This document shows positions 934-61,415 of a stretch of 64,000 nt of DNA, in pieces. The stretch comes from a virus. Position numbers and translations under genes: made by a program. Within the stretch, counting starts at the first letter, position 1, and every line of letters begins with the position of its first letter. The stretch lies in IMG/VR virus record IMGVR_UViG_3300033121_000981, positions 1 to 64,000 of that record. The stretch is one strand, 5' to 3'. The notes beneath the pieces were generated by a model. It was not told the origin of the DNA and ran no database searches. It saw nothing but the letters and a program-made list of their open reading frames with translations.

Positions 934-1150
934 AGAAGAAATTAAACAAGTGTTGTTAGATATGGGAGTATTAAAAACACCATATTGTACATACTATTTT
1001 TATGAAATAAAACAGCAATATTGCTCTATTTGTGAAGATATGTATTCTGATGATAAATACTATGATTATGAGAAAGATTTAAATGAATTTGTAGAGAACA
1101 TTGATAGTGATTGTGGTGGTGATTTAGATATGGTGTGGATTTATGACTAA
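914..1150 (+). CDS. hypothetical acidic protein
   Basis: ORF track. Confidence 0.4.
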   Translation: MKTSMTKEEIKQVLLDMGVLKTPYCTYYFYEIKQQYCSICEDMYSDDKYYDYEKDLNEFVENIDSDCGGDLDMVWIYD

Positions 1151-1667
1151 TATATTCTTGATAGCTGACACGCATTTTGGGCACAGAGGAATTGTTGAAT
1201 TCTTACGAGCTGATGGTGTTACAAAAGAACGTCCTTGGTACAATGTAGAAGAAATGGATGAAGAGCTTATATCTAATTGGAACAGAGTTGTACGGCCTAA
1301 AGATAAAGTGTATCATCTAGGTGATGTTGTGATTAATAGAAGAGCTCTTCCTACTGTTGGTAGACTTAATGGGGAGAAAATACTAATCAAAGGAAATCAT
1401 GATTTATTCAAACCAGAAGAATATCTAAAATATTTCAAGGATGTTCGTGGAAGTCATAAACTAGATAATTACATCCTAACACATATACCAATTCATCCTG
1501 ACAGTTTAGCTCGGTGGACTAATGGAAACATTCATGGTCATCTACATTTTAATAATGTAAGGCTCCCAGATGGCAGCATCGATAAAAGATATTTTTGCAT
1601 TAGTGTGGAACAAATAAATTATACACCAATAGCTTTTGAAGAACTTAAAACAATTCTTAAATATTAA
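1143..1667 (+). CDS. calcineurin-like metallophosphoesterase
   Basis: motifs DTHFG, GDVV..R and GNHD typical of the metallophosphatase fold. Confidence 0.8.
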   Translation: MTNIFLIADTHFGHRGIVEFLRADGVTKERPWYNVEEMDEELISNWNRVVRPKDKVYHLGDVVINRRALPTVGRLNGEKILIKGNHDLFKPEEYLKYFKDVRGSHKLDNYILTHIPIHPDSLARWTNGNIHGHLHFNNVRLPDGSIDKRYFCISVEQINYTPIAFEELKTILKY

Positions 1668-1787
1668 AACTATTACACATTTTAAAGACATGAAAGTGGC
1701 AGTAGCAACACATCTTGGATAATATTTACAAGAATGGAAAAATGCGTAATAAAAAAAAACATTAACTAGAAAAATATTAAAATTATT

Positions 1788-2512: not shown

Positions 2513-3151
2513 CTATAGGCATTTATATTGTTCTTGCTTTGTATTATATTCTAATTCGTATTTATCTAAACTATCTTTCCATTGTTTAATATTCCTAACT
2601 ACTGATGTCATAGGAAGAGAATATTTATCTGCAATAGCTTCGTATCCAAAACCGTTTACCCTATCCTCACACATAGCTCTCATTATTTCTGGTGTTATTT
2701 TAGGAGGACGACCAAACAGCTTCCCTTCAGCCTTAGCTCTAGCTAATCCAGAGTTAGTACGCTCAATAATAATATTACGTTCTAGCTCCGCAGCAGCAGC
2801 CATTACAGTAATAATCATTTTACCCATCGAACTAGTAAGGTCAATACCATCAAATTGTAATACTCTAAGTTTAATCTTGAGACGTTTAAACTCATCGATA
2901 GTGTGCAAAATATCTGAAGCTGTACGTCCAAGCCTGTCTACCATTGTACATATGCAAGTGTCTCCAGCCTTAGCTTTCTCCATCATGGATGAGAAAGCAG
3001 GGCGTTCTAAAGCTTTAATGGAACCTGAAACACCCTCTTCAGCATACCATTCATCTACAGCATACCCTGCATTCGTAATTTCTAATTTTTGATTTTCTGT
3101 AGTTTGACCTTTTTTAGTTGTGCTGACGCGCAGGTATGCAAATATTGTCAT
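2513..3151 (-). CDS. small serine recombinase (resolvase/invertase family) with C-terminal HTH
   Basis: N-terminal YLRVSTxxQ catalytic-serine motif, DRLGR, 212 aa. Confidence 0.9.
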   Translation of the reverse strand: MTIFAYLRVSTTKKGQTTENQKLEITNAGYAVDEWYAEEGVSGSIKALERPAFSSMMEKAKAGDTCICTMVDRLGRTASDILHTIDEFKRLKIKLRVLQFDGIDLTSSMGKMIITVMAAAAELERNIIIERTNSGLARAKAEGKLFGRPPKITPEIMRAMCEDRVNGFGYEAIADKYSLPMTSVVRNIKQWKDSLDKYELEYNTKQEQYKCL

Positions 3152-8215: not shown

Positions 8216-8244
8216 ATTATATACACTTTTATTTATTTTGTAAA
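8216..8244 (-). promoter_or_regulatory. early promoter cassette copy 4, TTTACA-17-TATAAT
   Basis: sequence match. Confidence 0.55.
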
Positions 8245-8786
8245 GAATTATTAACATAATATAAAGCATCCCCATTTTGTTTTACAGCTTCTAAACATAT
8301 TTCTTCTGTTTGTTCCTTAACATACCATAAAGCATAACCATTTTGTTTAACAGCTGCTAAACATATTTCTTCTGTTTGTTCCTTAACATACCATAAAGCA
8401 TAACCATTTTGTTTAACAGCTGCTAAACATATTTCTTCTGTTTGTTCCTTAACATCCTTTAAAGCATAACCGTTTTGTTTTACAGCTTCTAAACATATTT
8501 CTTCTGTTTGTTCCTTAACATGCTCTAAAGCATAACCGTTTTGTTTTACAGCTTCTAAACATATTTCTTCTGTTTGTTCCTTGACATCCTTTAAAGCATA
8601 ACCATTTCGTTTAACAGCTTCTAAACATATTTCTTCTGTTTGTTCCTTAACACACTCTAAAGCATATCCGTTTTGTCTAACAGCTGCTAAACATATTTCT
8701 TCTGTTTGATTCTCAACATACTTTAAAGCAAACCCCTCTTGTTTAACAGCTGCTAAAGCCTCTTGTTCATTAGTGAAATATTTCAT
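8229..8786 (-). CDS. DUF4116-type tandem-repeat protein, about 8 x 20-aa repeats (EQTEEICLEAVKQNGYALKDVK)
   Basis: obvious 20-aa periodicity; 60-bp DNA repeats. Confidence 0.8.
   Translation of the reverse strand: MKYFTNEQEALAAVKQEGFALKYVENQTEEICLAAVRQNGYALECVKEQTEEICLEAVKRNGYALKDVKEQTEEICLEAVKQNGYALEHVKEQTEEICLEAVKQNGYALKDVKEQTEEICLAAVKQNGYALWYVKEQTEEICLAAVKQNGYALWYVKEQTEEICLEAVKQNGDALYYVNNSLQNK
8270..8770. repeat. about 8 tandem copies of a 60-bp unit, coding and in frame, inside CDS 8229-8786
   Basis: near-identical copies, e.g. TTGTTCCTTAACATACCATAAAGCATAACCATTTTGTTTAACAGCTGCTAAACATATTTCTTCTG. Confidence 0.8.
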
Positions 8787-8822
8787 TTTTTAACATTCCC
8801 GTTTAAATTAAACAACACAAGT

Positions 8823-8851
8823 ATTATATACACGTTTATTTAATAAATCAA
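8823..8851 (-). promoter_or_regulatory. early promoter cassette copy 5, TTGATT-17-TATAAT
   Basis: sequence match. Confidence 0.6.
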
Positions 8852-9267
8852 GCATTATTCAATTTATTTCTATGTTTATGAGAAGCACCAATTTTAGCCG
8901 CGCACATTGTCACAGCTGCTACAGTGCGCCCCAATTGTCTAGCACACTCAACCCTGCCAAGAATTTTATAATTTCCTTTCAAGAAAATTATCTCATCATC
9001 TTTCCATTTTGTGCTATTTGTTAAATTAACAAAATTTTGACATTTTCCTGCTTTTCGCATCGCATTGCGCTGGTTTGTTAATTTTTCAATCGCGCCAATT
9101 TGCATTAAATAATGTGGCAAATTATAACTAGAAAGCCAATTTTCTAGCATACTGATATCGGTGCGTAATAATTTAGCAGCGTGCTCATTGCTGTATTCAA
9201 TTTCAGAAATTAATTTTTGAAGCTTTTTACTAAAATCTATCATTTCATTTTCCTTTGTTTTGTCCAA
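8848..9267 (-). CDS. hypothetical protein, possible C-terminal HTH
   Basis: ORF track. Confidence 0.5.
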   Translation of the reverse strand: MDKTKENEMIDFSKKLQKLISEIEYSNEHAAKLLRTDISMLENWLSSYNLPHYLMQIGAIEKLTNQRNAMRKAGKCQNFVNLTNSTKWKDDEIIFLKGNYKILGRVECARQLGRTVAAVTMCAAKIGASHKHRNKLNNA

Positions 9268-9455
9268 AAAGGATCAAAAGCGAATGGGCATTCGTACATC
9301 ATGCGCCCGTCAATATTGCTTATAAAAGTACTTCGTGCTTGGTTTTTGTGCCGCTTCAAAATCTCGCGGGTTTTTTGTGTTGCTGGAAAGTAAAGATCTG
9401 ACTGCCAATTACTGCACTCAATACCCGCTGCAATCAAGTCTTCATAAATTGTCAT
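9240..9455 (-). CDS. hypothetical protein
   Basis: ORF track. Confidence 0.45.
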   Translation of the reverse strand: MTIYEDLIAAGIECSNWQSDLYFPATQKTREILKRHKNQARSTFISNIDGRMMYECPFAFDPFWTKQRKMK

Positions 9456-9780
9456 TTTTAGTTCCTTTCAAAATTAATTAATAGAGTAGATATTATTACA
9501 TACAGAATAAATATGTACAACATATTTTTAAGAATTTATGAAAATAATTTATAAAATGTTATCAATAAATACATAAAACGATTTAAACGGCCCATATTCA
9601 ATTTAAATATTTACCCTAACCCTACTATTAAATTTATTTTTAAATCGATTATAGAGCGTTTTGACAAGCCTATTTTAAGTATGTATTGTATAAATTACAT
9701 TTAATAATTTTCTTGACAAAATGCGAAATATATGATGCATGCAAACTATAAGCGTGTGTCCCGCCAGGGACCATGCAAAC

Positions 9781-9810
9781 TATAAAAATAGTTTACACAA
9801 ATTTAAAATT
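9781..9810 (+). promoter_or_regulatory. sigma70-like promoter TTTACA-18-TATAAT in a non-coding region
   Basis: no plus-strand ORF downstream; followed by hairpins. Confidence 0.5.
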
Positions 9811-9884
9811 GTGTGTATAATAGCTGCATTGATACAACAAACTATCAATATGACAATTTAAGCAGCGACGAGAGGCGCAACCCT

Positions 9885-9914
9885 GCTGGGTGCGCTTGAC
9901 TACAATCTTTAGCG
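9885..9914 (+). promoter_or_regulatory. second tandem promoter, TTGACT-18-TATAAA
   Basis: seen directly. Confidence 0.5.
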
Positions 9915-10149
9915 TTAAGTATAAATTTAATGTTATTTTTTGAATGTAAGTAGCCCTTGCGCGTAATATTTATACGTTGATTTTTACGTAGCTACTGTTA
10001 CGCCTAAAATTATTTTATTGCTTTATTAGCAAGATATTGTAATATCGATAATATTAATAAATTATTAATGTTTCATTTTTGGAAACGTTTTTGCTTATTT
10101 TGATATTACTAAATTTGGATACCAAAAATCCTATAAGAAGGTTTAAAAA

Positions 10150-10330
10150 ATTCGGGTGAAATCTAGGAAATTCCAAATTCCTAGAAATGCTGAATTCCAA
10201 AATTCAAAATGGTAAATTTTCTTAAAATTTAAATTTATGAAAAGCCACATAATGTAAAATTCCGTGGCCAAATTTGGAATTATTTTCAAATCCTTGTTTG
10301 GATTTCATTTTTAAATTATTTAAAATTCCA
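10150..10330. repeat. iteron-like repeats of AAATTCCAAA (four or more copies) plus palindromes CCAAATTTGG and TCAAATCCTTGTTTGGATTTCA
   Basis: seen directly; AT-rich region. Confidence 0.5.
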
Positions 10331-10349
10331 AAATTAATATTTAGCAAAT

Positions 10350-11483
10350 TTACTTAATATCAAAACGTTTATCTAGTGCTTTAGTATAATCTTGTAATAG
10401 ATATATTTTATATTTTTCTTTACAATCATTCCAAGATGCTTTGACATTAATGTTCTTCTTTTTAGCATTAAACAAAACAGCAGAATAACGGAGTTTACAG
10501 AACTCGTCGGCTAGCTCTTTTTGTGTTGAACAGGTGTTGTTGAGATAATTATATGTACTAGCCATAGATTCCATAAGATAATTGAATCCTCTTATATATG
10601 GCTCAAACAAAAACCTATCGTCTGGAAAATAATTTAAATACTCTTCATGTTCTCCTGAAATAACTAATTGGCATATCCTTTTCGGTGAAATACCTTCACC
10701 CTTCATATGATGTACAGCTACATAAGTTGGACTTTTTATTTTACAGATAGGAACACCATTTTGATATAACACATACCCTTCATCAAGGTTTTTTAATGTT
10801 TTAACATGATTTAAACATTCGTCTATTGATTTAAATATGTATTGTTTTGGGATAATAGCGCCTAAATCTTCCCAGATAAAATCTAAATTCCAATATTCCC
10901 CAGTTTTTATATCTCTGGATGTCAAATAGTATAAACTACACCCATCGTACCGTTTAATCACTCTATTTTCTGGACTAACTACTTCCAATATGTGAGTATC
11001 TTTCTTTGAAAAATGCTTTTCACAGCTTTCTTGGAACTGTTTCTCAGACCAATTTAAAGATTTCAATACAAGCTCTTTATAAGTAATATCAAATCCATTT
11101 ACCGTTGTCTCTGCAAAAGCTGTACCTCTTGTGGATATTCTCCACTCATTGCCCCAATGGTAGATTTTAATTAAACTTCCGTCAATTTTCTCAAAACACT
11201 TTGTATTAGAAAAATATAACCCATTTAATGTCTCTGATTGTTCCCCATAATTAAAGAACCTATCAAACCCTCTTGATACAACATTATAATTTTTACTGTC
11301 AAGAATAAGCCCCCTACATTCCATAACAATTGGATGTGTTTTTGGGCTGTGAATTTGATCATAATTTAAAACAAGCAAACCCTCATCATATTGTTTCACT
11401 TTAATATGAAAGTTATCCTCTAAGGTTTTTATTCCATGTTCTTTTAAATATTCAATTGTTTTCATGTATTTTGAGCTTTCCAT
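10350..11483 (-). CDS. rnlA: RNA ligase 1 (T4 Rnl1-like)
   Basis: motifs ECRG, FFNYGE, KIDGSL (nucleotidyl-transferase motif I) and EGYV...CKIKS match T4 Rnl1 in order; 377 aa against 374 aa. Confidence 0.88.
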   Translation of the reverse strand: MESSKYMKTIEYLKEHGIKTLEDNFHIKVKQYDEGLLVLNYDQIHSPKTHPIVMECRGLILDSKNYNVVSRGFDRFFNYGEQSETLNGLYFSNTKCFEKIDGSLIKIYHWGNEWRISTRGTAFAETTVNGFDITYKELVLKSLNWSEKQFQESCEKHFSKKDTHILEVVSPENRVIKRYDGCSLYYLTSRDIKTGEYWNLDFIWEDLGAIIPKQYIFKSIDECLNHVKTLKNLDEGYVLYQNGVPICKIKSPTYVAVHHMKGEGISPKRICQLVISGEHEEYLNYFPDDRFLFEPYIRGFNYLMESMASTYNYLNNTCSTQKELADEFCKLRYSAVLFNAKKKNINVKASWNDCKEKYKIYLLQDYTKALDKRFDIK

Positions 11484-11758
11484 TGTTGTGCGTATAATTT
11501 ATACCTCTTGCCATACCCTCTTACCCACTTCCGTACTTTATTCCTTTTTCTGTTCTTATGATTACAATAATATTCTGCAAATCCATTAGGCATACAGAAC
11601 GCTATTGTACCTCCAGACCAGCTTTTTATTTTGTTCCTAGATTGATAAATAGAACATTCTACATGATTAGAATTAGCATAATTTACACCGTATTTAATAG
11701 CTTGCTGAAGTGTGGTAAAAACTTTTAAAGTTCCATTATTCGTTCCTGACACAAACAC
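11462..11758 (-). CDS. hypothetical basic protein
   Basis: ORF track. Confidence 0.45.
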   Translation of the reverse strand: MFVSGTNNGTLKVFTTLQQAIKYGVNYANSNHVECSIYQSRNKIKSWSGGTIAFCMPNGFAEYYCNHKNRKRNKVRKWVRGYGKRYKLYAQQWKAQNT

Positions 11759-11772
11759 CTCATATTTACACC

Positions 11773-12021
11773 TTACTGGGAAGATAGAATTATTTGCCCT
11801 ACCTTTATATTTTTCTTATCCACACCTCCAAGAATAGATAGTTCTCTTCTTGAAAGAAATTTTGTCATCTCAATATTCTTATAAACCAAACCCGCTCTAA
11901 TTTCATCTTCTGCTCCGTCTTCCCTAATAATTTTTACATTTTTATTATTGTCATACGAAATAATGGAAATTTTTTCTGGTGTTTCTGAATATAGATTTGT
12001 GTAATAAGTTTTCTTATTCAT
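11773..12021 (-). CDS. hypothetical protein
   Basis: ORF track. Confidence 0.45.
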   Translation of the reverse strand: MNKKTYYTNLYSETPEKISIISYDNNKNVKIIREDGAEDEIRAGLVYKNIEMTKFLSRRELSILGGVDKKNIKVGQIILSSQ

Positions 12022-13103
12022 ATTTTGCTTGCCCTATTTAGTTTATTAACAATTTCTATTACAAACATTTTTGCATACGGATTCTCAACCACTTTATTAT
12101 ATCTCATAAAATGTTGGTTAAAATCACATTTAGCATCACTTACGGAAATTCCAAGAGTACTGTGACGTTGTCCATTCTGTGTGATAGAGTAAACAAGGTA
12201 TCTTCCATTTTCTACCTGTGGAATGTAGCTGGCAACACAATGATGCATAGTCATACCTTCTTCTACAATAGCTAAAGGTGACTTCAATAGATGAGCTTCA
12301 AAACCATTCTCATCTTGAAAATATGTAGATGTTAAACTCTTAAGACAATTTATTTCTTCATTAGAAAATCTTCTTTTATTGTACTCTTTAGAACATATGT
12401 CATGCTCTTCTTTTATTCTTCTATAGCTTAGTTTATACAACCTTTCTGTATCTCTCCCAAGTAATCTGAAAAGGTTTAAAGTATCAGTAAATATTTGTTT
12501 TTCTTCGTAAAATAACTTACCCCACTTACCTTTACAATGTAGACTAATCCATTTTAAAACTACAATATCAACATCATAATTATTTTTCAAAACAGTGGTA
12601 GGTAAGTAGCAGTATTCGTTTAGGAATTTAAAACTACTGCCACACCTTGTATTACTTAAATACGCTGACATTAGCACCTTGTTTTTATTTAAAGAGTTTT
12701 TAGCAATAATTTTCCAGTTTGGGATACTTTCTTTTAACTCTTTAGGGCTTTTGCCAGTAATTGCAATAATAGGTAGTACGTTGAAGAGACCGTCGCTGTA
12801 CGCTTCTTTAAGTGTTGAATAATTTTTATGGACACTTTCCAGTAATAAATTATCCATTTTATACTTGTTCCAACTAATCTTTCTAATTATATCAATGTGA
12901 GGAACTACAAAAACTTTATATTGAAGTTTTTTAAAAGCTGCAAAAGCTCGATAATGTTCCCTTGAGATAGGTAAACTTAGGCCCATACCATAAACCCATG
13001 TTATGCAACTCTTAGTATTTTGATAGTTCGTGAATTCATGAATAGTTTTTCCATCTTGTAAAACTACAATACTTCTTCCTCTTACATCAAATGTTATTTT
13101 CAT
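12018..13103 (-). CDS. hypothetical protein with conserved C-terminal MHHCVASY motif (possibly PcfJ-like)
   Basis: ORF track; motif recalled from memory only. Confidence 0.55.
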   Translation of the reverse strand: MKITFDVRGRSIVVLQDGKTIHEFTNYQNTKSCITWVYGMGLSLPISREHYRAFAAFKKLQYKVFVVPHIDIIRKISWNKYKMDNLLLESVHKNYSTLKEAYSDGLFNVLPIIAITGKSPKELKESIPNWKIIAKNSLNKNKVLMSAYLSNTRCGSSFKFLNEYCYLPTTVLKNNYDVDIVVLKWISLHCKGKWGKLFYEEKQIFTDTLNLFRLLGRDTERLYKLSYRRIKEEHDICSKEYNKRRFSNEEINCLKSLTSTYFQDENGFEAHLLKSPLAIVEEGMTMHHCVASYIPQVENGRYLVYSITQNGQRHSTLGISVSDAKCDFNQHFMRYNKVVENPYAKMFVIEIVNKLNRASKI

Positions 13104-13374
13104 ATTTTGCTTTCAATTCTTTAAGTAACCGTCGTTCACGTACCTCTTCAATACTTTTCTTATTTTTCTCAACTCTTAATCTATGTATGTATTCCTCATC
13201 AGTCTCTAATACATCCCAATGCACGGGAAAATAGAAAGAATGGTTATCACTATCTCCACCAATTATGGCAGAGTCTGGAATATTATAAGTAGCTAACATC
13301 CTTTTAAATTCCCCAACGCTCATATTGCTACACTCTATACTCTCATATTTATTTATATATTTCTTTAGCATCAT
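13087..13374 (-). CDS. hypothetical protein
   Basis: ORF track. Confidence 0.5.
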   Translation of the reverse strand: MMLKKYINKYESIECSNMSVGEFKRMLATYNIPDSAIIGGDSDNHSFYFPVHWDVLETDEEYIHRLRVEKNKKSIEEVRERRLLKELKAKYENNI

Positions 13375-13398
13375 ACTCTCCTTTTGTAAGAAAATAGT

Positions 13399-13737
13399 TT
13401 ATATATTAACAAACAAACTATCCACTGTCCATTTTTTCTTCCTTAATATTTCAGCTATTTTTACACTACATTTTCTATATAATTTTAGAATGGCTACACA
13501 TTCAGAATATTCTATATCATAAATACACGCCAATTCTTTAACGGTAAGGGTAGAAAATGTTGTCAATAATAAATATATTCCACTTTCTGAAATACGTGTT
13601 CCACTTTCTACCTCCTGTGCTATAATTTTACTCACCCATTTAGGCTTTAAACGTTGCCTGCATAAATATGTGTAAGAATATTTGTTGTCATATGTTTTAT
13701 GATGTGGGTTTGTTATTTTTGATTTTTTCATAAACAC
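13399..13737 (-). CDS. hypothetical protein, possible HTH regulator
   Basis: ORF track; first gene of the leftward unit at the divergent region. Confidence 0.5.
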   Translation of the reverse strand: MFMKKSKITNPHHKTYDNKYSYTYLCRQRLKPKWVSKIIAQEVESGTRISESGIYLLLTTFSTLTVKELACIYDIEYSECVAILKLYRKCSVKIAEILRKKKWTVDSLFVNI

Positions 13738-13960
13738 TTCTCCAAAAATACTTCCTAAAAGGGATAATTATAGCATGTTACCTACATTATATGAACAAGC
13801 ATTTGCAAAAATAACCAGAAACAAAGAGTTGGTAAGACTCTCTAAAGTTGCTTGTTTAAATTAAAACAAGCAAAAAGCTGTAAGGTATGCTATAGTGAAA
13901 GCTGCTGCATATATAAGGTATTTGATTGAAAACAATTAATAATATTTAAAGGATAAAATT

Positions 13961-14209
13961 ATGAATATATTTAAAATTTGTGGTTATTCAACGCACGCAG
14001 TAGTTGTACCTTCACAATCTCACTTAGGTAAAGCTAATATAAAATCTGTTAATCCAGAACAAGCACATTTGTTTCGCATGATAGATAGTCACGGTAAGTG
14101 TCAAGAAGTTGATATTAGAATGATGAATAGAATTGCTATGCAAAGAATTGAACAGCAGCGCAGAGATCGGATTCTTAGTACGTTTTTGCAGGGAATGAAT
14201 GATGAGTGA
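13961..14209 (+). CDS. hypothetical protein
   Basis: ORF track; first gene of the rightward unit. Confidence 0.45.
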   Translation: MNIFKICGYSTHAVVVPSQSHLGKANIKSVNPEQAHLFRMIDSHGKCQEVDIRMMNRIAMQRIEQQRRDRILSTFLQGMNDE

Positions 14210-14855
14210 CATTTGCACAGAAGAATTGTTTCTTAAAGATGTAAAAGAACACGTTATTGAAATAATCAGAGATGACGGCGTGCATCGACACATTAGATTC
14301 AAAAAGACTGGAACTGGTTGCATGCATTTCGATTTGATCACATGGCCAGGCTACTTATGTTACACTGGCGACATGGGAACATACGTATTCACGCGACTAA
14401 TGGACATGTTTGAGTTTTTCAGAACGGATAGAAGAGACGAAAACAAATTAGGCATAAACCTCGGTTATTGGTCTGAAAAACTGATCGCAGTAAACAGCAA
14501 CGGAAGATTCGGCGGTTCTGCTGAAGAGTTTTGCGAAGATAGTTTTAGGCGCGCAATTAATGAGTACCGAATCGAGTGGATGCGGGAAGGTTTTGAAAAT
14601 GGAACGCTTCGTAAAAAGGAACGCAGAGAATTATGGGAAGCAGTTGATTGGCAAGTTTTAGATGAGATTGATAACGGGGAACTTTCTGCATTACACGCTG
14701 CACAAGATTTTCGTTACTTTATTGGAAAAAATGAAAAACCTTATGAATTTACTGATTTTTTCGAACACAATTTTAAAAAATATACGTTTCATTTTATTTG
14801 GTGTTGCTACGCAATAGCTTGGGGAATATTGAAATATGATGAGTTTAAGAAATAA
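14199..14855 (+). CDS. hypothetical protein
   Basis: ORF track. Confidence 0.6.
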   Translation: MMSDICTEELFLKDVKEHVIEIIRDDGVHRHIRFKKTGTGCMHFDLITWPGYLCYTGDMGTYVFTRLMDMFEFFRTDRRDENKLGINLGYWSEKLIAVNSNGRFGGSAEEFCEDSFRRAINEYRIEWMREGFENGTLRKKERRELWEAVDWQVLDEIDNGELSALHAAQDFRYFIGKNEKPYEFTDFFEHNFKKYTFHFIWCCYAIAWGILKYDEFKK

Positions 14856-15160
14856 ATGATGAAACTGATTACTTACAACAAAGGTAAGGGATTATTTTGG
14901 ATTCGATTTACCTTTTTAGGAAATAGAGGCTTTTATATTAAAGATACTGGAAAGTTACGGTTAACTTTCTCAGAACGTAATGCAAACAAGTTTGGTTTTT
15001 CTATACGTAATTTTTATTTTAGTTTTTTAAGTGGTTATTAAATAGAGGTGGAAAATGGAAGTATTGATTTATAAAGATAATACAAACGTTTTTGCAGGGT
15101 ATGAGTAATGCAAATATTTAAATACTTTACAGTTTTTATAATTTCATTCTTTTTATTCGC

Positions 15161-15478
15161 ATGTGGAGATACCTAATGAAACATAAACATTACGAACTAA
15201 TAATAGCTTTTGCTAACGGTGAAGAAATTGAACTCAAGAGTGGTGACAAATGGTTCGCTATACGGAACCCATCTTGGTTTGATAATATTGAATATAGAAT
15301 CAAACCAAAAGAGCCTAAAAAAGTTTCTATGTGGCAATTTGTTTGTAAGGACTCGTGTGGGTACTGGTTATCACAAAGATTCTATACTTCAAAAGAGGAA
15401 GCTCAAAAATCTAGGTTATCCCATTGCGAGGTGTTATTTAAATTAGAATCCTCCCATATTTTAGTAGAAGAGGAATAA
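15161..15478 (+). CDS. hypothetical protein
   Basis: ORF track. Confidence 0.5.
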   Translation: MWRYLMKHKHYELIIAFANGEEIELKSGDKWFAIRNPSWFDNIEYRIKPKEPKKVSMWQFVCKDSCGYWLSQRFYTSKEEAQKSRLSHCEVLFKLESSHILVEEE

Positions 15479-16831
15479 ATGACACTATACCAACTTATCA
15501 CTTTAATCAGGGAAACACAAGGACACACAAATAAACTCACACTTATGCGTCAGCATAAAGATAATGAACTGTTTAAAAATTACATGCAAGCTGTGTATGA
15601 TCCCACTTTAAATTACTATCTTACTAAGCTTCCTAAGTATGATAAAACTCTAATAGAAAAAGAAGTTGCACTTGAGTTCACTCAAGATACTTTGAGTTCA
15701 TTAATGAAGCTTGCTACAAGACAAATTACAGGTAATAAGGCTAAACAATTTTTGTCCAAGTTACTATGTTATTTGAATGATGAAGGTAGGGAGCTAGTTG
15801 GGTATATTATCCGCAGGAATATAAATGGAAATGTCGGTGATGGTATGGTGCTTAAAGTATGGCCTGAGCTGTTCTTTATTCCTCCATATATGCGTTGTTC
15901 TTTATTGAATGAGAATACAAAGAAACATTTCTCTTCTTTGCCTAGATTTTATGTACAAGAAAAAGTGGATGGTTCTTTTATATACTTAATTGTGCCTGAA
16001 AACAGTCCATCAGAGGCTCTTACAAGAGCAGGAAATGTATATCCTCATTGGTTCTCTTCTATGTTAATTAAGGGTGAAAAAGTAAATCATTGGGGTAAAG
16101 TTCTAATTGGGGAATGTTTAGTTTACAACCAATTCAATATTTTGCTACCAAGACAAGAGGGTAATGGGGTTTTAAATAGTATTCTACATGGGGGATTAAA
16201 AGAGGAGTTTGAAAATTATAGATTTTTAATGGTAGTTTGGGATAAGGTTACTATAGATCAATTTTATAATGGTTACTCAAGTATAGCTTATAAGTTTAGG
16301 TTTGATGGGATTAGGCTTGGGGATAATCCTAATTTAATTAAAGTTAGTTCATATCAAACAGATAGTCTTGAAAAGGCTTTTAACATTTATTCTACATATA
16401 CTTCTTTAGGTAAAGAGGGTGTAGTTATTAAAGACCCTGACAGTGTTTGGAAAGACTACACATCACCTTATAATGTTAAATTAAAACTAACGTTTGAAAT
16501 AGATTTAGAGGTTATTTGCACATATGAAGGTCAAGGTAAAGCTGCTGGTATGTTAGGTGGATTAGTTGTACAATCAAAAGATGGTAGAGTAAACTGTTGT
16601 GTTGGGACAGGGTTTACTGATAAAATACGTAAAGAATTATGGAGCAGCAAAGAGGACATTATTGGTAAAATTGTCACAGTTAAAGCGAATGATGTTATAA
16701 CTGATAAAAACCAATGGAAAACTAAAAGCTTATTTCTACCAGTATTTGTAGAGTTACGTAATGATAAAACTGAGGCGGATAGCTTTGAGCATATTATGAA
16801 TCAATTAGAAGCTGCTAAACAAGGAAAATAA
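15479..16831 (+). CDS. ATP-dependent DNA ligase
   Basis: motif I KVDGSF, C-terminal OB-domain GTGFTD as in T7-type ligases, 450 aa. Confidence 0.8.
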   Translation: MTLYQLITLIRETQGHTNKLTLMRQHKDNELFKNYMQAVYDPTLNYYLTKLPKYDKTLIEKEVALEFTQDTLSSLMKLATRQITGNKAKQFLSKLLCYLNDEGRELVGYIIRRNINGNVGDGMVLKVWPELFFIPPYMRCSLLNENTKKHFSSLPRFYVQEKVDGSFIYLIVPENSPSEALTRAGNVYPHWFSSMLIKGEKVNHWGKVLIGECLVYNQFNILLPRQEGNGVLNSILHGGLKEEFENYRFLMVVWDKVTIDQFYNGYSSIAYKFRFDGIRLGDNPNLIKVSSYQTDSLEKAFNIYSTYTSLGKEGVVIKDPDSVWKDYTSPYNVKLKLTFEIDLEVICTYEGQGKAAGMLGGLVVQSKDGRVNCCVGTGFTDKIRKELWSSKEDIIGKIVTVKANDVITDKNQWKTKSLFLPVFVELRNDKTEADSFEHIMNQLEAAKQGK

Positions 16832-17046
16832 TGGGAATATAATCGCATACTTAATTAGATATCATCATTTAAATACTTAAATGATGGCAGAAAAATTAAA
16901 TGTAAAATTCCACACTATGATTGATCTTAAAATACAAGAATCAGAAATATCTTATGATATACTTAATAGGTGCGCTAAAGCGTTTAACATGAATATTACA
17001 ACAGTTATTGCATTAGAGCGTATCTTAAGAGAATATAAGTTTTGTA

Positions 17047-18039
17047 ATGAAGGGTACTATTAGAACTATGACAACATTTAAACCATATCCAAGTATTTCA
17101 CAATTCAGAAATGTTATTAAAAGGGTTGTAGATCAGGCTCAGTTTGTAGCAATAGCACCGCCAACACTTACATACAAAGGTACCGTAAAGCTACACGGAA
17201 CTAATGCCTGCATTCATAAAAGTAAACAAGGAGAATATTCTTTTCAATCAAGGAATAGACTTATTACTAAAGAATATGATAATTGTGGATTTGTTCATGA
17301 AATGTCTCAGAAACCTTTAAAGGAATTGTTTAAAGGTTTTGATGGAAAAGATGTTTACATATATGGAGAGTGGTGCGGAACAGGTATCCAAAAGAACGTA
17401 GCTATTTCACAGCTACCTAAAATGTTTGTAGTTTTTGAAGTAATTGTGGACGGTGTTAAACTTGTACAAATTGAAAATATTAAACTTCCAGAACATAGAA
17501 TTTTTAATGTAAATCAATTCCAAACATTTACCCTTGATATTGATTTTAACAATCCACAAAAGGTTCAAAATAAGTTGATTGAAATAACTACTCAAGTGGA
17601 ATCTAAATGCCCTGTAGCAGCTTTCTTTGGTGTAGAAGGGATTGGTGAAGGTGTTGTGTGGAGTCTTGCTGAAAGTTGCAGTAATTTTAAAATAGGTGAC
17701 AGCGAATTAACTTTCAAAGTGAAGGGAGAGGAACATTCAACAACTAAAGTAAAAACATTAGCTGCGGTTGATGTAGAACTTTTAAATTCTATTGCAGATT
17801 TTATTGATACTGCAGTTACAGAGCAAAGATTACAACAAGCTATCTCTTATATGAAAGAAATGCAGATTAGTATTGACAGTAAAAATACTGGAGAGTTTGT
17901 AAGGTGGGTTTATAGAGATATTATGAAGGAAGAGTCAGATGTGATTGATAGCTCAAACTTAGATACTAAAACGTTAGGATTTCATATTAGTAAACATGCT
18001 AAGTTTTGGTTCTTTAAATATTTGGAGCAAAGTAAATGA
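17047..18039 (+). CDS. RNA ligase 2 (T4 Rnl2-like)
   Basis: motif I KLHGTN, GEWCGTGIQKNV matches T4 Rnl2 GEFAGPGIQKNV; 330 aa against 334 aa. Confidence 0.85.
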   Translation: MKGTIRTMTTFKPYPSISQFRNVIKRVVDQAQFVAIAPPTLTYKGTVKLHGTNACIHKSKQGEYSFQSRNRLITKEYDNCGFVHEMSQKPLKELFKGFDGKDVYIYGEWCGTGIQKNVAISQLPKMFVVFEVIVDGVKLVQIENIKLPEHRIFNVNQFQTFTLDIDFNNPQKVQNKLIEITTQVESKCPVAAFFGVEGIGEGVVWSLAESCSNFKIGDSELTFKVKGEEHSTTKVKTLAAVDVELLNSIADFIDTAVTEQRLQQAISYMKEMQISIDSKNTGEFVRWVYRDIMKEESDVIDSSNLDTKTLGFHISKHAKFWFFKYLEQSK

Positions 18040-20909: not shown

Positions 20910-21862
20910 TGTCAAAAATTATTGTAGAAGGTAAAGGTGGAATTTACGCTAAAGTATTAGCGGATAGTGTTTCATCTGTCGGAGTTCGTCTTATGACATT
21001 TGAAGTTGAATTTCCAAGGTATATTCTTAGTGAATATAACACACACAGGATGTTTTCACGTAATGCCGCGTCAACTAGAGCCATTCCTATTCTCAAGATG
21101 CTAGAACAAATAGCAGAAAGTCCAGCTATGCCGATATATTATGGCAAGAATCAAACGGGAATGTCTGCAAAGGAAGAATTGTCAATAGAAGATGCTGAGA
21201 AATGTAAAACTATCATTGATGAGATGCGTCTTTATTGCACAGAAAAAGTTAAAGAGTTACATAGTATTGGATTACATAAACAACATGCTGGAAGATATAT
21301 TGAACCTTGGCAAATGGTAAAAGGTGTTGTGTCCTCTACAGAATGGGACAATTTCTTCTGGTTGCGTAACGATGAAGCAGCCCAACCAGAAATAAAAGAA
21401 CTAGCCCGTTGCATGCAAGAAGCTAAGAATCAGAGCATACCTGAAAAGTTATATCCTGGAGAATGGCACCTACCTTATATTGAAATTGATAAGGGCTGGT
21501 GTGGTAATTCTCGTACATATATGATTAAAGAGGATGCAGATGGAGACTACAAGCAACTTACACTAGAAGAAGCTATTATTGTAAGTTGTGCTAGATGCGC
21601 TGCGGTGAGTTTTCGTTCCACAAACTATAACTTAGAAAAATCAACCAATATTTATCAAAGATTGGTTGGGGATGAAAAAAAACATAGCAGTGCACTGGAG
21701 CATTGTGCCACTCCTGTATCAGGAAATGCCAGTTTGGATACAAACGGTGTGACAGCATTTCACAATATACTAGGTTTTATGTCTGGTAACTTATCCGGAT
21801 GGATACAGTACAGACAATTGATAGAGGGTCATACTTATTATGGTAACTTTAGCAGAAATTAA
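20909..21862 (+). CDS. thyX: flavin-dependent thymidylate synthase ThyX
   Basis: ThyX signature (T/R)HR-x7-S-xR: YNTHRMFSRNAASTRA. Confidence 0.8.
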   Translation: MSKIIVEGKGGIYAKVLADSVSSVGVRLMTFEVEFPRYILSEYNTHRMFSRNAASTRAIPILKMLEQIAESPAMPIYYGKNQTGMSAKEELSIEDAEKCKTIIDEMRLYCTEKVKELHSIGLHKQHAGRYIEPWQMVKGVVSSTEWDNFFWLRNDEAAQPEIKELARCMQEAKNQSIPEKLYPGEWHLPYIEIDKGWCGNSRTYMIKEDADGDYKQLTLEEAIIVSCARCAAVSFRSTNYNLEKSTNIYQRLVGDEKKHSSALEHCATPVSGNASLDTNGVTAFHNILGFMSGNLSGWIQYRQLIEGHTYYGNFSRN

Positions 21863-22415
21863 TAAAACTTTTTACTATTCTGAGGATAGTCCTAGCAAAC
21901 TTAAGTGGAAACTAGACAAATTTACTGGAGGTCATAGAAAAACACACTCCGTTGTTGCGGGAAGCAATGCTGGCGGTTTAAATCTACAAGGTTATTACGA
22001 GGTCAAACATAATGGGAAATCTTACAAATGTCATAGGTTAGTTTATATGTTAGTAAATAATACTATTTTAGATAAAGACGATCAAATAGATCATAAAGAT
22101 GGGGATAGATCAAACAATAGTAAAAACAATCTTTTAAAATCAAATGCAATCTTAAATTCTCGTAATAAGAGCTTAAGAAAATCTTCAAAAACTGGTGAAA
22201 CAGGGGTTTCTATTTCAACAAACGGGCGTGGGTATCTGTATGCAAAAGCCACTTGGCAGGAATTAAATGGTGAAGGTTGTTGGAAAACATTTTCTTTTTT
22301 GAAATATGGAAAAGATTTAGCTATAAAATTAGCAATAGAATGCAGGAAAGAAAATATGAATCGATTGCAAGAAACTGGAGCGGGTTATTCAGATCGTCAT
22401 CTAGGTTTGCAATGA
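21840..22415 (+). CDS. HNH homing endonuclease with AP2 domain
   Basis: HRLVYMLV...IDHKDGDRSNN (HNH) plus C-terminal AP2-like GVSISTNGRGYLYAKATW. Confidence 0.8.
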   Translation: MVTLAEINKTFYYSEDSPSKLKWKLDKFTGGHRKTHSVVAGSNAGGLNLQGYYEVKHNGKSYKCHRLVYMLVNNTILDKDDQIDHKDGDRSNNSKNNLLKSNAILNSRNKSLRKSSKTGETGVSISTNGRGYLYAKATWQELNGEGCWKTFSFLKYGKDLAIKLAIECRKENMNRLQETGAGYSDRHLGLQ

Positions 22416-23798: not shown

Positions 23799-25454
23799 AT
23801 GGGTTATGAAAAAGGGCATTACAAAATGGCTAATAAAGAAGAATTTGTGCCGAAAGAAACTGTAAAAGATATTTTAACATATCCTTTCAAAGACATCCCT
23901 TTCAGAGGTTTGCGAAAAGAAACCTGCGAGAAGTTTGGTGTTCGTGTAGCTGTTAGTGAATCTGATGGTAAAACAATTGAGTCGGTATATTTCCCTTCAT
24001 TTAATCAAAAAGGTAAGATTGTTGGTTTTAAGAAACAAGATTGTACTAAAGATAAAAGTGAGAAATATCATTGGTCTACTATTGGTAGTGTTTCTATTTC
24101 CAATAAATTGTTTGGACAGGAAGTTGCTGAAAATGTGAAGCGTAAAAGAAACTCCCTTGTATATGTGGAAGGTGAGTATGATGCAATGTCTTGCTATCAA
24201 GCTATGGTTGACCAAGTGCAGAATACGAAGTACGCTAACCTTGAACCATTTGTTGTCAGTATTCCTTTAGGTACAGCTAATGCTGTAGAAGCTACGCTGC
24301 ACAATAACGAGTTTGTGCAAAGCTTTGATTCTCTATGTATATTCTTTGATGACGATTATTGTACCCCTGCTGAGAAGCAAAAAGGTATAATGAAGGGGCA
24401 TGAAGCTCGTGAAGCTGTAGCTTCTGCTATGCTTGGTACAAACATGTCTTTGTTTGTTCTCACGACAGAGGGAAGTTATAAAGATGCTTCTGATATGTTA
24501 CAAGATGGAAAATCTGAAGAGTTAGCTAAATTAGTGCAATTTGGTAAGAGAGCTTTCTCAGCAGAAAAGATTGTTAAAGCTAGTGATATTAGTTTAGAGG
24601 AAGTAATAGCTCCTAGGCCAGAAGGTATCTATGTTAAAGAATTTCCTAAGCTGATGGAAAAGATACATGGCTTCAGAAAGCGTGAGTTAGTATTATTGAC
24701 AAGCCCATCCGGTGTAGGTAAATCTACTGTTGTTTCTAAGTTTTCTTCAGCTATTATGCAAGCTGGGGAGCGTGTTGGGATGATTTATTTAGAAGAAACA
24801 AACATTGAGACAATGCAACGTATGATTGCAGGAGAGCTGAAAGTTAATTTTAATAAATTCCGTAATAATCCATTATCTGTAGCTTCTCATGAAGCAATTG
24901 CAGCAGCTAAGAAGAAGATTGATGATAATGACCAATTAATTATGCTAGGACATTTTGGTAGCTTGCCTATTTCAGAATTAATGGCTAAAATTAAACATAT
25001 GCACTTAGTGGAGAAATGCGGATATATCTTTATCGATCATTTGTCTGTAGTAATTAGCGGCTCTCAAATTGATAATGAACGTAAAGAGCTTGATATTGTG
25101 ATGACAGAATTGGCTGCCTTCTGTGCCTCTAATGATGTAGGGATTATTGCCATTTCACATATTAAGCGTTTAGAAGCTTCTGATTTAAAACCTGCTAAGG
25201 GTAAAGAAGATCAACCATTTTGGGTAAAAGTTACTAAAGAAATGATGCGCGGTAGCGCTGCATTAGAACAGCTTAGTTGGATTGTAATTGGACTTGAACC
25301 TGAGATATTACCAGATAGGAAACGTGGCAGGGTGAGGCTTACAAGCCTTAAGAATCGACCTTGGAGCTATCTAGGAGAAGCTGATACATTTAAGATGGAT
25401 GAAGAGACGTGGGAAGTTATTTTATCTGTTTCTGATAATGATGGGAGTTTTTGA
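23799..25454 (+). CDS. primase-helicase (T7 gp4-like: Toprim plus DnaB-family helicase)
   Basis: Toprim EGEYDAMS; Walker A SPSGVGKST; Walker B IFIDHLS; 551 aa. Confidence 0.85.
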   Translation: MGYEKGHYKMANKEEFVPKETVKDILTYPFKDIPFRGLRKETCEKFGVRVAVSESDGKTIESVYFPSFNQKGKIVGFKKQDCTKDKSEKYHWSTIGSVSISNKLFGQEVAENVKRKRNSLVYVEGEYDAMSCYQAMVDQVQNTKYANLEPFVVSIPLGTANAVEATLHNNEFVQSFDSLCIFFDDDYCTPAEKQKGIMKGHEAREAVASAMLGTNMSLFVLTTEGSYKDASDMLQDGKSEELAKLVQFGKRAFSAEKIVKASDISLEEVIAPRPEGIYVKEFPKLMEKIHGFRKRELVLLTSPSGVGKSTVVSKFSSAIMQAGERVGMIYLEETNIETMQRMIAGELKVNFNKFRNNPLSVASHEAIAAAKKKIDDNDQLIMLGHFGSLPISELMAKIKHMHLVEKCGYIFIDHLSVVISGSQIDNERKELDIVMTELAAFCASNDVGIIAISHIKRLEASDLKPAKGKEDQPFWVKVTKEMMRGSAALEQLSWIVIGLEPEILPDRKRGRVRLTSLKNRPWSYLGEADTFKMDEETWEVILSVSDNDGSF

Positions 25455-31547: not shown

Positions 31548-32111
31548 ATGATTATAGGATTAGCTGGTAAGGCTGGGTCAGGGAAAGATACCGTTGCTGA
31601 TTATTTAGTGGCAAATTATGGATTTGAAAAAATTAGTTTTGCTAAACCTCTAAAAGATATGTTATCAGCAGCAGGGTTCCCAGAACCTACTAATCGTGAC
31701 GATAAAGAAAAACCTATTAATGGTTTTAATTTTTCTTGGAGGTATATGGCTCAAACCCTAGGCACAGAGTGGGGACGGAATTGTCTAGGTCAAGATATTT
31801 GGGTGCAGATAGCTATGCGTAATTTAGACACAAATAAAAATTATGTATTCTCAGATGTTCGTTTTGAAAATGAAGCAGATGCTATTCGTAAAGCTGGCGG
31901 TATTGTTATTCACTTACTTGGAAGAAAATCTGACTTAGGCTCTAATGGTGAACATATATCTGAAAAACCATTAGTACAGATTGGTAAAGATATTATGTTA
32001 CTTAACCAAAACAGTAAGCAACATTTATTTACTACTATTGATTGTTTTATGGAATCTATAAATATATCAAAATCTGAAAGTGATAACTCTAAACATTTTA
32101 GTTTATTTTGA
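31548..32111 (+). CDS. deoxynucleoside monophosphate kinase (T4 gp1-like)
   Basis: P-loop GKAGSGKDT and DVRFENEADAIRKAGGIVIHL parallel T4 gp1. Confidence 0.75.
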   Translation: MIIGLAGKAGSGKDTVADYLVANYGFEKISFAKPLKDMLSAAGFPEPTNRDDKEKPINGFNFSWRYMAQTLGTEWGRNCLGQDIWVQIAMRNLDTNKNYVFSDVRFENEADAIRKAGGIVIHLLGRKSDLGSNGEHISEKPLVQIGKDIMLLNQNSKQHLFTTIDCFMESINISKSESDNSKHFSLF

Positions 32112-54570: not shown

Positions 54571-54606
54571 GGGTACTCTCTATTTGATTATTTTAAACTT
54601 AATGTA

Positions 54607-55439: not shown

Positions 55440-55640
55440 AATTTTGTTTCCTTTAATTGTAGGTTTGTGTTAAAATTGTTTTCTCTTTTATGAGAATATT
55501 GTTATAATTAGGTTTAGACAAATAAAAGCTACTAACAATGGTAACTTAGTTCTTTTCATGCGCCATAGTAGCATTCATGAATGCTTAGATGGAGGTTAGG
55601 TAATATGCCCAACCTCCGTAGGCTGTTTTATTACTATTGA

Positions 55641-56099: not shown

Positions 56100-56120
56100 A
56101 TTTATTTATTTCCTTTTAAA

Positions 56121-56477: not shown

Positions 56478-56490
56478 TTATTTTTCCTTT

Positions 56491-58690: not shown

Positions 58691-58696
58691 TTTATA

Positions 58697-59424: not shown

Positions 59425-59437
59425 TTATATCCTTTGT

Positions 59438-61380: not shown

Positions 61381-61415
61381 AATTTATTTCCTAATATTTT
61401 TATTCTATGTTAATA

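Follow-up and report, generated by a model that had tools for sequence, protein, structure and literature searches.

What can a phage repair with three polynucleotide ligases and no polynucleotide kinase (Pnk)? Phage Rnl1 is the textbook counter to anticodon nucleases and is thought to need Pnk for end healing. The Rnl1 and Rnl2 families seal solely 3′-OH and 5′-phosphate ends; the classic PrrC-type break carries a 2′,3′-cyclic phosphate and a 5′-OH. In the 64,000-nucleotide stretch of viral DNA analysed here (the window), an initial annotation had recognised an Rnl1-like ligase, an Rnl2-like ligase and an ATP-dependent DNA ligase but no Pnk, and had suggested that two metallophosphoesterases might heal ends instead and that the leftward genes next to Rnl1 might form an RNA-repair or anti-defence module. 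The open reading frame (ORF) coordinates that it gave are all correct (Table 1).

Table 1. Features of the window discussed in the text.
Feature	Position	Strand	Size	Family, nearest structure or remark
Small calcineurin-type metallophosphoesterase (MPE)	1143–1667	+	174 aa	phrog_547
Non-coding hypervariable gap	9456–10349		895 bp	26% GC; directly downstream of Rnl1
Rnl1-family ATP-dependent RNA ligase	10350–11483	−		PF09511; phrog_562; T4 Rnl1 2C5U
Five genes upstream of Rnl1, in its leftward unit	11462–13737	−	112, 95, 361, 82, 98 aa	
PcfJ-like protein	12018–13103	−	361 aa	PF14284
T4-type ATP-dependent DNA ligase	15479–16831	+	450 aa	phrog_114; PF14743; 6DT1
Rnl2-family RNA ligase	17047–18039	+	330 aa	PF09414; phrog_548; T4 Rnl2 2HVQ
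P-loop dNMP kinase	31548–32111			PF21448 (E = 3e-23); P-loop GKAGSGKD
Larger phosphoesterase	35713–36555			phrog_221; N-terminal HTH

We compared the three ligases with family profiles and solved structures, and each assignment was borne out. Rnl1 matched PF09511 (E = 1.9e-19; score 70.9, cut-off 28.3), phrog_562 (E = 5e-55) and T4 Rnl1 (E = 2e-18), with ECRG, RFFN, KIDGSL, EGYV and KIKS in register. The motif I lysine, in EKIDGSL, lies opposite that of T4 KEDGSL (K99), ECRG is conserved, and E167, E235-G236 and K248/K250 of motifs III, IV and V fall opposite the T4 residues; K99, D101, G102, E167, E235, G236, K248 and K250 were invariant in 16 homologs. Arginine is found throughout the Rnl1 clade where T4 has K75 and K119. 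The alignment with T4 Rnl1, an enzyme with a C-terminal tRNA-specificity domain, ends at residue 295; within the clade the C-terminus is conserved. The ORF encodes 377 residues, or 371 from the likely start at Met7, as called in a sister strain; dN/dS against that strain is 0.23, showing that Rnl1 is still under purifying selection. For Rnl2 we obtained matches to PF09414 (E = 1.2e-12) and phrog_548 (E = 3e-61). A five-sequence Rnl2 profile aligned with T4 Rnl2 over both domains with KxHGTN in place (E = 3.5e-32), covering T4 residues 3–324 and including the C-terminal helical domain for nick sealing; the single-sequence match to PF18043 was under the cut-off (17.5 versus 27 bits). K48, H50, G51, N53, E108, E201, G202, K224 and K226 are invariant. 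The DNA ligase, which sits among replication-associated genes, matched phrog_114 (E = 5e-93) and PF14743 (E = 1.5e-10, over the cut-off), with PF01068 under the cut-off (21 versus 26.2 bits). Its best PDB match is T4 DNA ligase (E = 8e-34), aligned in two stretches (35–209 and 273–500) that take in the N-terminal, nucleotidyltransferase and OB regions, with KVDGS opposite KADGA. Judged from these alignments, all three ligases keep their catalytic motifs, and Rnl1 and Rnl2 are predicted to be catalytically intact ATP-dependent ligases.

Searches of the window for Pnk were negative. Its six-frame ORFs of at least 50 residues contained no [GA]xxxxGK[ST] or DxDGT motif in a plausible gene, tblastn gave no match for Pnk, and phmmer with two real Pnk proteins reached a best E of only 0.11. 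Two HMMs run with --max, one of the kinase domain built from 47 sequences and one of full Pnk, recovered only a dNMP kinase (E = 0.005), which is not a Pnk. The initial annotation had overlooked this enzyme, and its statement that neither a P-loop kinase nor a DxDGT phosphatase was visible stands for Pnk and DxDGT but not for P-loops, which in this genome are confined to the primase-helicase and the dNMP kinase. In control searches, Pnk was detected in Pseudomonas phage phiPMW and in L005 (E = 1e-65), and none was detected in the complete relative Pseudomonas phage vB_PsaM_M1 (OP714164; hereafter M1).

Overlapping public contigs allowed us to close a reconstructed phage genome of ~74 kb and low GC. 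One continuous contig (L092) joins both window ends: it overlaps window positions 62726–64000 at 99.1% identity and also overlaps L010, which matches positions 1–2265 at 99.96% identity. The closure includes 8.5 kb read from the sister strain rather than from the window strain. The extra 10 kb outside the window held no kinase, HAD protein or Pnk, and neither the HMM of full Pnk nor motif scanning revealed a DxDxT HAD 3′-phosphatase in any part of the reconstruction, window included. We conclude that a polynucleotide 5′-kinase and a HAD 3′-phosphatase are both absent from the whole ~74-kb reconstructed genome; the absence first noted in the window extends to the closed sequence. No tRNA genes able to bypass tRNA cleavage were found in the genome either.

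Among the 26 closest Rnl1 loci, 23 have a Pnk-type gene directly downstream of Rnl1, and Pnk is also directly 3′ of Rnl1 in phiPMW and L005. In this phage that position is occupied by a gap with no ORF of at least 50 residues, no tRNA and no Rfam family. This gap is 67–82% identical to that of the sister strain, with non-triplet indels, and its flanking genes are ~100% identical. A degraded Pnk was considered here and rejected, since tblastn finds no remnant. The possession of three ligases without Pnk is thus unusual when set against the closest relatives, nearly all of which have Pnk. It is not unique, as 29 of 80 Rnl1 loci have no Pnk within ±10 kb, a state that may reflect a distant or host-supplied kinase.

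We then considered the two phosphoesterases proposed as end healers. The small MPE matched phrog_547 (E = 1.5e-50) and Aquifex aq_1665 (1XM7; E = 2e-10), with PF12850 under the cut-off, and keeps the metal-ligand motifs DxH (DTHFGH), GD, GNHD, H114 and GHxH. Its homologs adjoin kinase-only Pnk in 10 of 16 such loci, compared with 3 of 35 loci with full Pnk. In L012, L039 and L089 the homolog directly follows a kinase-only (AAA_33) Pnk downstream of Rnl1, and L033 carries an in-frame Metallophos–Rnl2 fusion. These arrangements in relatives speak for the proposed role. Against it, 65 of 80 MPE-seeded loci have no RNA ligase or kinase nearby, and the MPE belongs to the gene backbone of this phage group. 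In the window it is encoded on the strand opposite to Rnl1 and is separated from that gene by 8.7 kb and from Rnl2 by 15 kb. The sister strain (94.6% identical) lacks the MPE and keeps Rnl1, so Rnl1 in this lineage cannot depend on 3′-healing for its function. The MPE is the sole candidate 3′-end-healing enzyme, a role for which the evidence is circumstantial. The larger phosphoesterase is flanked by exonuclease, HNH endonuclease and MazG genes in the DNA-replication module, and we found no link between it and the RNA ligases, which argues against end healing by this protein.

The explanation that we favour, with a probability of about 45%, is that the sealing-only set of RNA and DNA ligases is a reduced form of the standard phage Rnl1–Pnk RNA-repair toolkit. 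There is no Pnk anywhere in the reconstructed genome, and the phage alone would therefore reseal only RNA breaks that already have a 5′-phosphate. Rnl1 (and Rnl2) would act on such breaks, made for example by metal-dependent ribonucleases; the MPE may optionally clear 3′-phosphate or 2′,3′-cyclic phosphate ends; and classic PrrC-type breaks would be beyond repair by the phage alone. The variable non-coding gap may mark where a kinase was lost; alternatively, Rnl1 may have been acquired without one. In phages, ATP-dependent RNA ligases are generally accompanied by PNK and phosphoesterases, and calcineurin-like domains sometimes act as the phosphatase (PMC7824862). We think it unlikely that Rnl1, with or without the MPE and neighbouring Macro/SLOG proteins, is a specialised kinase-independent repair system for 5′-phosphate damage (for example by metal-dependent defence tRNA nucleases), or that an ORFan is a new, non-P-loop polynucleotide kinase.

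End healing might instead be supplied in trans, by an unrecognised ORFan kinase of the phage or by a host 5′-kinase (for example of the bacterial Pnkp/Hen1 type), in which case classic 2′,3′-cyclic-phosphate/5′-OH tRNA breaks would still be repaired. Rnl1 is both conserved and under selection, its relatives act together with a kinase, and many ORFs of the genome have no detectable family (more than 20 without any family match). An ORFan kinase is harder to reconcile with the few P-loops of the genome, as all known polynucleotide 5′-kinases are P-loop enzymes, and the neighbours of the 29 Pnk-less Rnl1 loci share no candidate kinase family with this genome. A host kinase is conceivable in that Pnkp systems occur in bacteria (PMC3675462, PMC4411300). 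Overall, we regard healing in trans as somewhat unlikely.

The absence of Pnk would be irrelevant if Rnl1 served a purpose other than repair, such as a T4 gp63-like attachment of tail fibres or the processing of phage RNA. Its PHROG family is annotated as 'RNA ligase and tail fiber protein attachment catalyst', and the gene is set apart from those of Rnl2, the DNA ligase and the MPE. However, the adenylyltransferase motifs are all invariant in the clade, the gene belongs to a leftward block of early type rather than to the structural genes, and the virion module, with a 1911-aa tape measure, a tail terminator and no sheath match, looks siphovirus-like, in contrast to T4 and its long contractile-tail fibres. 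A non-repair role is therefore doubtful.

We consider it improbable that the strain has a Pnk that was missed, either in the 8.5 kb read from the sister strain or in a larger genome. The right side of L092 is only 87–90% identical to the window strain, gene content varies between window and sister strains (for example in the MPE and a 71-aa ORF), and a protein identical to the MPE is recorded from a 66.6-kb contig. Nevertheless, the window ends are linked by one contig, L174 and L176 share the backbone and have no Pnk in that interval, and the Pnk-type gene of relatives is normally beside Rnl1, a position fully read here. L012 shares that backbone but has a kinase-only Pnk gene in the interval.

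Rnl1, the 3′-terminal gene of its leftward transcription unit, ends this unit rather than heading it as had been described. The PcfJ-like protein encoded upstream matched PF14284 at 48.5 bits (cut-off 25; residues 205–345), and its C-terminal domain has a GNAT-like fold rather than that of a kinase, phosphatase or nuclease. In the HHC motif pointed out earlier, the His-Cys pair is invariant in the family but the first His is not. The block is 100% identical to that of the sister strain whereas Rnl1 has diverged, and the two have different recent histories. It is highly improbable that the block forms a novel module for RNA repair or anti-defence, with Pnk replaced by the PcfJ-like protein or its small neighbours: the fold and the discordance speak against it, and of 80 loci only one has a PcfJ homolog less than 10 kb from Rnl1, at a distance of 8.7 kb. 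The five genes are neighbours of Rnl1, not demonstrated functional partners.

A selected Rnl1 without a kinase would point to breaks with 5′-phosphates (and a different class of host nuclease), to a host kinase or to a second job for Rnl1. The underlying idea has been published before (PMC7824862); what this phage offers is a concrete, testable case, not a new principle. All three ligase families also occur in T4 (Rnl1/gp63 with Pnkp/PseT, Rnl2 and DNA ligase); the motif with the catalytic lysine and motifs III–V are conserved, and a T4 enzyme is the nearest PDB match for each ligase of this phage. T4, a T4-like myovirus, has Pnkp, whereas this phage, ~74 kb and siphovirus-like with a T7-like replisome, has neither a P-loop polynucleotide kinase nor a DxDxT HAD phosphatase. 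The closest Rnl1 sequences are those of the Rnl1–Pnk cassettes of Pseudomonas phages phiPMW/SYP and many uncultivated relatives (44% identity in deposited phages, 50–53% in metagenomes); in these cassettes Pnk follows Rnl1 by 0–2 kb on the same strand, in place of the hypervariable gap seen here. M1, whose DNA polymerase (42% identity) makes it the nearest annotated relative, likewise has a DNA ligase, Rnl2, RNR, MazG and a T7-like replisome, lacks Pnk and carries an ortholog of the small phosphoesterase (E = 9e-26), but differs in lacking Rnl1, in possessing tRNA genes and in its contractile tail.

Bacterial Pnkp is a kinase–metallophosphoesterase–ligase with a phosphoesterase of the lambda-phosphatase type. 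The window MPE is not of this type, its nearest solved relative being aq_1665. Bacterial Pnkp and Pnkp1–Rnl–Hen1 are analogous to the sets in L012, L039, L089 and L033, where a split, kinase-only Pnk and a calcineurin-type phosphoesterase lie by Rnl1 or Rnl2; the window shares both the phosphoesterase family and the ligases with these sets. L012 is genuinely related to this phage, and its MPE is 62% identical to that of the window (E = 2.8e-70). Here the kinase is missing and the MPE is unlinked to the ligases, linkage and fusion being seen only in relatives. Those relatives map a modular alternative of kinase-only Pnk and calcineurin-type phosphoesterase, extended in one contig to a phosphoesterase–Rnl2 fusion, that parallels bacterial Pnkp, and the phage described here is a kinase-less variant of the known phage RNA-repair toolkit.

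The open reading frames (ORFs) named in the initial annotation were found where it had placed them, and we compared its three proposed ligases with Pfam, PHROG and PDB entries. Rnl1 scored 70.9 bits against the Pfam RNA_lig_T4_1 cut-off of 28.3, and alignment with T4 Rnl1 (PDB 2C5U; E 2e-18) matched ECRG, RFFN, EKIDGSL, EGYV and KIKS to the corresponding T4 motifs; its catalytic residues were invariant in a 16-sequence alignment. A single-sequence search of the PDB with Rnl2 returned no match, and a five-sequence Rnl2 profile matched both domains of T4 Rnl2 (2HVQ; E 3.5e-32), with KxHGTN in register. The best solved relative of the DNA ligase was T4 DNA ligase (6DT1; E 8e-34). From these family matches and aligned motifs, we conclude that the window contains three ligases of the proposed families, all apparently catalytically competent to judge by their sequences. 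The 105-aa protein encoded immediately upstream of the DNA ligase has homologs in two Rnl1 loci without polynucleotide kinase (Pnk), L015 and L018, and the one in L018 directly adjoins the MPE homolog.

Features of the window discussed in the text, in order of coordinates
Feature	Coordinates	Strand	Size and matches
MPE (small calcineurin-type metallophosphoesterase)	1143-1667	+	174 aa; phrog_547 E 1.5e-50
Serine recombinase	2513-3151	-	Resolvase E 7e-38
DUF4116-repeat protein	8229-8786	-	185 aa; six DUF4116 repeats, E 1e-56
Non-coding gap directly downstream of Rnl1	9456-10349		895 bp, 26% GC, no ORF >=50 aa
Rnl1	10350-11483	-	Pfam RNA_lig_T4_1 E 1.9e-19; phrog_562 E 5e-55
PcfJ-like protein	leftward block		361 aa; PF14284 E 1e-12
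105-aa protein	15161-15478	+	105 aa
DNA ligase	15479-16831	+	phrog_114 E 5e-93; OB_2 domain
Rnl2	17047-18039	+	Pfam RNA_ligase E 1.2e-12; phrog_548 E 3e-61
T7-type primase-helicase	23799-25454	+	Ser-type P-loop SPSGVGKST
dNMP kinase, T4 gp1/T5-type	31548-32111	+	PF21448 E 3e-23; P-loop GKAGSGKD
Larger phosphoesterase	35713-36555		phrog_221; N-terminal HTH

No classical Walker A motif was present in any six-frame ORF of at least 50 aa in the window, and no DxDGT motif in a plausible gene among the same ORFs. When the Pnk proteins of phage phiPMW and Paraglaciecola virus GD1 served as phmmer queries against the window, no match was better than E 0.11. Two HMMs, one of the kinase domain (47 sequences) and one of full-length Pnk, were applied unfiltered to all window ORFs of at least 40 aa and matched only the dNMP kinase (E 0.005); as a positive control, they recovered the Pnk of phiPMW and of the metagenomic relative L005 at about 1e-65. 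In Pfam scans covering every early-region ORF, HAD, 2H, HD, KptA and RtcB were all absent. We conclude that there is no canonical Pnk in the window, as had been proposed. The accompanying claim that no P-loop kinase is visible was mistaken, the dNMP kinase having been overlooked. This gene directly follows the family-A DNA polymerase and encodes the only small-molecule kinase of the genome. We rejected it as a Pnk: it clearly belongs to the DNMK family, its match to the Pnk kinase HMM is marginal and at the level of the P-loop, and by family assignment it is an enzyme of nucleotide metabolism. A relaxed pattern recovered only two genuine P-loops in the window, those of the primase-helicase and the dNMP kinase. 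As the former is of the Ser type and the terminase (in the sister-strain locus L092) has no Walker A recognizable by pattern, the strict Walker A expression is empty across the 64-kb window.

From the known chemistry of their families, Rnl1 and Rnl2 join a 3'-OH to a 5'-phosphate, and metal-independent nucleases of the PrrC type leave a 2',3'-cyclic phosphate and a 5'-OH. Having no 5'-kinase, the phage alone would therefore be unable to repair such breaks. The best-supported reading, to which we give a probability of about 0.45, is a reduced, sealing-only toolkit in which Rnl1 and Rnl2 would seal breaks already bearing a 5'-phosphate, with MPE possibly clearing 3' ends. If the host or an unrecognized ORFan supplied a kinase in trans, repair of PrrC-type breaks could be restored, a reading we consider unlikely; we found no non-orthologous kinase that the window phage shares with other Rnl1 loci without Pnk. 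The annotated 'nucleotide kinase' (277 aa) of Pseudomonas phage vB_PsaM_M1 (M1) was also rejected as a Pnk, since it is homologous neither to Pnk nor to any ORF of the window.

Comparison with other Rnl1 loci indicated how unusual this arrangement is. The closest deposited Rnl1 proteins are those of Pseudomonas phages phiPMW and SYP (44% identity). The gene order in phiPMW is Rnl1, small ORF, Pnk, and in L005 (a 92.7-kb contig) it is DNA ligase, DUF7390, Rnl1, Pnk (AAA_33 and HAD_PNKP), with an intein-containing Rnl2 upstream. Among 80 IMG/VR Rnl1 loci, some of them near-duplicates of each other, 35 had a full Pnk within 10 kb on either side, 16 had a kinase-only gene (AAA_33 without the HAD phosphatase) and 29 had neither. 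A Pnk-type gene lay immediately 3' of Rnl1 on the same strand in 23 of the 26 closest loci (identity at least 43%). Deposited phage genomes, in a coarse comparison only, gave 2,988 Pnk records against 1,560 for Rnl1, with Pnk records at least equal to Rnl1 records in every Rnl1-bearing host group. Loci L015, L021 (which has terminase and portal genes in common with the window phage) and apparently L018 are likewise without a kinase near Rnl1. An Rnl1 without a kinase is thus atypical, yet not unique.

In the gap 3' of Rnl1, GGAATTT/AAATTCC-type repeats are abundant, the 14-mer CATGCAAACTATAA is duplicated and there is a GC-rich hairpin (GCGCACCCAGCAGGGTTGCGC). A decayed Pnk was rejected here, tblastn with three Pnk proteins giving only chance-level matches; the gap matched no Rfam family (sole match a sub-threshold CRISPR-DR, E 0.38), and ARAGORN found no tRNA in it. 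Aligned with the sister strain (L003 and L004; 94.6% identical), the gap varies more than any other part of the region (67-82% identity, indels not multiples of three) and is a mosaic of near-invariant blocks interleaved with replaced segments. Possible identities for the gap are a regulatory region, an origin or an unannotated RNA. The genes at 11200-14800, including that of the PcfJ-like protein, have essentially 100% DNA identity to the sister strain, and Rnl1 has a divergent patch at 10601-11000 (85-94%). Such sharp mosaicism, together with the presence of MPE in one strain only, indicates, on these alignments, recent recombination around the ligase. With 23.5 non-synonymous and 22.5 synonymous differences, Rnl1 has a dN/dS of 0.23, so that purifying selection on the ligase persists in the absence of a kinase. 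The selected function might lie outside repair, a reading we hold to be distinctly improbable. The DUF4116-repeat gene shows a DNA self-similarity with a period of about 66 bp, and the sister strain aligns to it in several shifted registers.

We next closed the genome. Exact-protein look-ups identified two contigs of the same phage (L008 and L009; 100% identity to window 50352-62675), and a third, L010 (99.96% identical), reaches 1,615 bp left of the window. L092, from a 22-kb sister-strain contig reached via the Macro-domain protein at the end of L010, aligned at one end to window 62726-64000 (99.1%) and at the other to L010 1-743. Because L092 bridges the right end of the window and L010, the genome closes at about 74.1 kb, with only about 10.1 kb outside the window, of which 8.5 kb was read from the sister strain. 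This segment encodes an S49 protease, a Mu-type portal, an intein-containing large terminase, small early ORFs, a YAcAr/SLOG protein, DUF6197 and a Macro-domain protein. The initial annotation had named a canonical Pnk elsewhere in the genome as refuting its proposal; Pnk HMMs, motif scans and Pfam found none in the 10.1-kb segment, which also has no tRNA genes. That the window strain carries a Pnk within the 8.5 kb read only from its sister is very unlikely. An intein or homing endonuclease domain lies inside the sister strain's large terminase (L092 2284-4608, 774 aa) and the Rnl2 of L005 (1546-3516, 656 aa), and the window itself has HNH genes at scattered sites (21840-22415, 35175-35720). 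Macro-domain and YAcAr/SLOG-family proteins, with NAD/ADP-ribose-related functions, are encoded in the early block upstream of MPE (L010 251-694 and L092 7421-7789, just left of the window; window 32108-32521); in L069, a jumbo-phage locus, the gene right after Rnl1 encodes a Macro-domain protein.

Rnl1 had been described as heading a leftward block with a possible role in RNA repair; it is instead the last gene of a unit running from 13737 to 10350. There is a good extended -10 promoter-like site at 13795-13767 (-), although the promoter and terminator scan of 9000-14400, taken as a whole, did not exceed shuffled expectation. Of the 'HHC' motif reported in the PcfJ-like protein, H288-C289 is invariant in 95 homologs and the remainder is not; H234 and Q330 are also invariant. 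An AF2 model (pLDDT 93.8) has a small N-terminal sheet, a long helical region and a C-terminal alpha/beta domain, and on this predicted GNAT-like fold the protein is not a kinase, phosphatase or nuclease. A literature search on PcfJ function returned nothing useful. We rejected the protein as a healing enzyme on its fold and lack of linkage to Rnl1 (a PcfJ homolog within 10 kb in 1 of 80 loci), and a new repair module in this block, for which we found no evidence, is extremely improbable on the same grounds.

Both phosphoesterases had been suggested as end healers. For the larger we reject this: it has no PDB match and no linkage to a ligase, and its phrog_221 assignment, HTH and neighbours (5'-3' exonuclease, HNH endonuclease, MazG) place it in a replication and recombination module. 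MPE retains all calcineurin-superfamily metal-binding motifs (nearest solved relative Aquifex aq_1665, 1XM7), and its homologs occurred in 10 of the 16 kinase-only loci, compared with 3 of 35 with full Pnk and 2 of 29 without Pnk. A kinase-only gene is followed by MPE in L012, L039 and L089, with Rnl1 directly before in L012 and L039; Pfam found AAA_33 in all three kinase genes and Metallophos in the MPE neighbours of L012 and L089, that of L039 having no Pfam match. L012 is a genuine relative, with protease, portal, terminase, resolvase, Rnl1 (E 1e-114) and MPE (E 1e-71) in common. In L033, a 534-aa in-frame fusion (8234-9835) of Metallophos (residues 13-197) and an Rnl2-type ligase (241-439) precedes Rnl1 and a kinase-only Pnk gene. 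On the other side, neither a Pnk-type kinase nor an RNA ligase lay within 10 kb in 65 of 80 MPE-seeded loci. MPE belongs to the backbone of the phage group, where it closes the early block next to the opposite-strand resolvase, an arrangement seen in L174 and L176 with no Rnl1 or kinase there; M1 has MPE and Rnl2 but neither Rnl1 nor Pnk; and in the sister strain 242 bp replace window 1153-1753, removing MPE. Kinase-only Pnk thus usually comes with MPE, whereas MPE usually comes without a kinase, and this asymmetry makes MPE a plausible, unproven and non-obligate candidate 3'-healer.

The MPE(+)/resolvase(-) junction is conserved in L012, L174 and L176, and the serine recombinase gene lies at a reversal of both gene orientation and GC skew. 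The 2.5-13.7 kb block is wholly minus strand, flanked by plus-strand blocks, and is possibly an invertible or rearranged segment.

Polynucleotide kinases and phosphoesterases have been described as 'generally congruent' with ATP-dependent RNA ligases, the phosphatase sometimes being provided by calcineurin-like domains (Iyer et al. 2021, PMC7824862), and there is biochemical precedent in bacterial Pnkp and Pnkp1-Rnl-Hen1 (PMC3675462, PMC4411300). The phosphoesterase-Rnl2 fusion of L033 is a phage analogue of the bacterial Pnkp domain fusion. Since this association and its precedents are already published, the window phage is a kinase-less exception to a known toolkit, one with a clear comparative frame that is straightforward to test by experiment.
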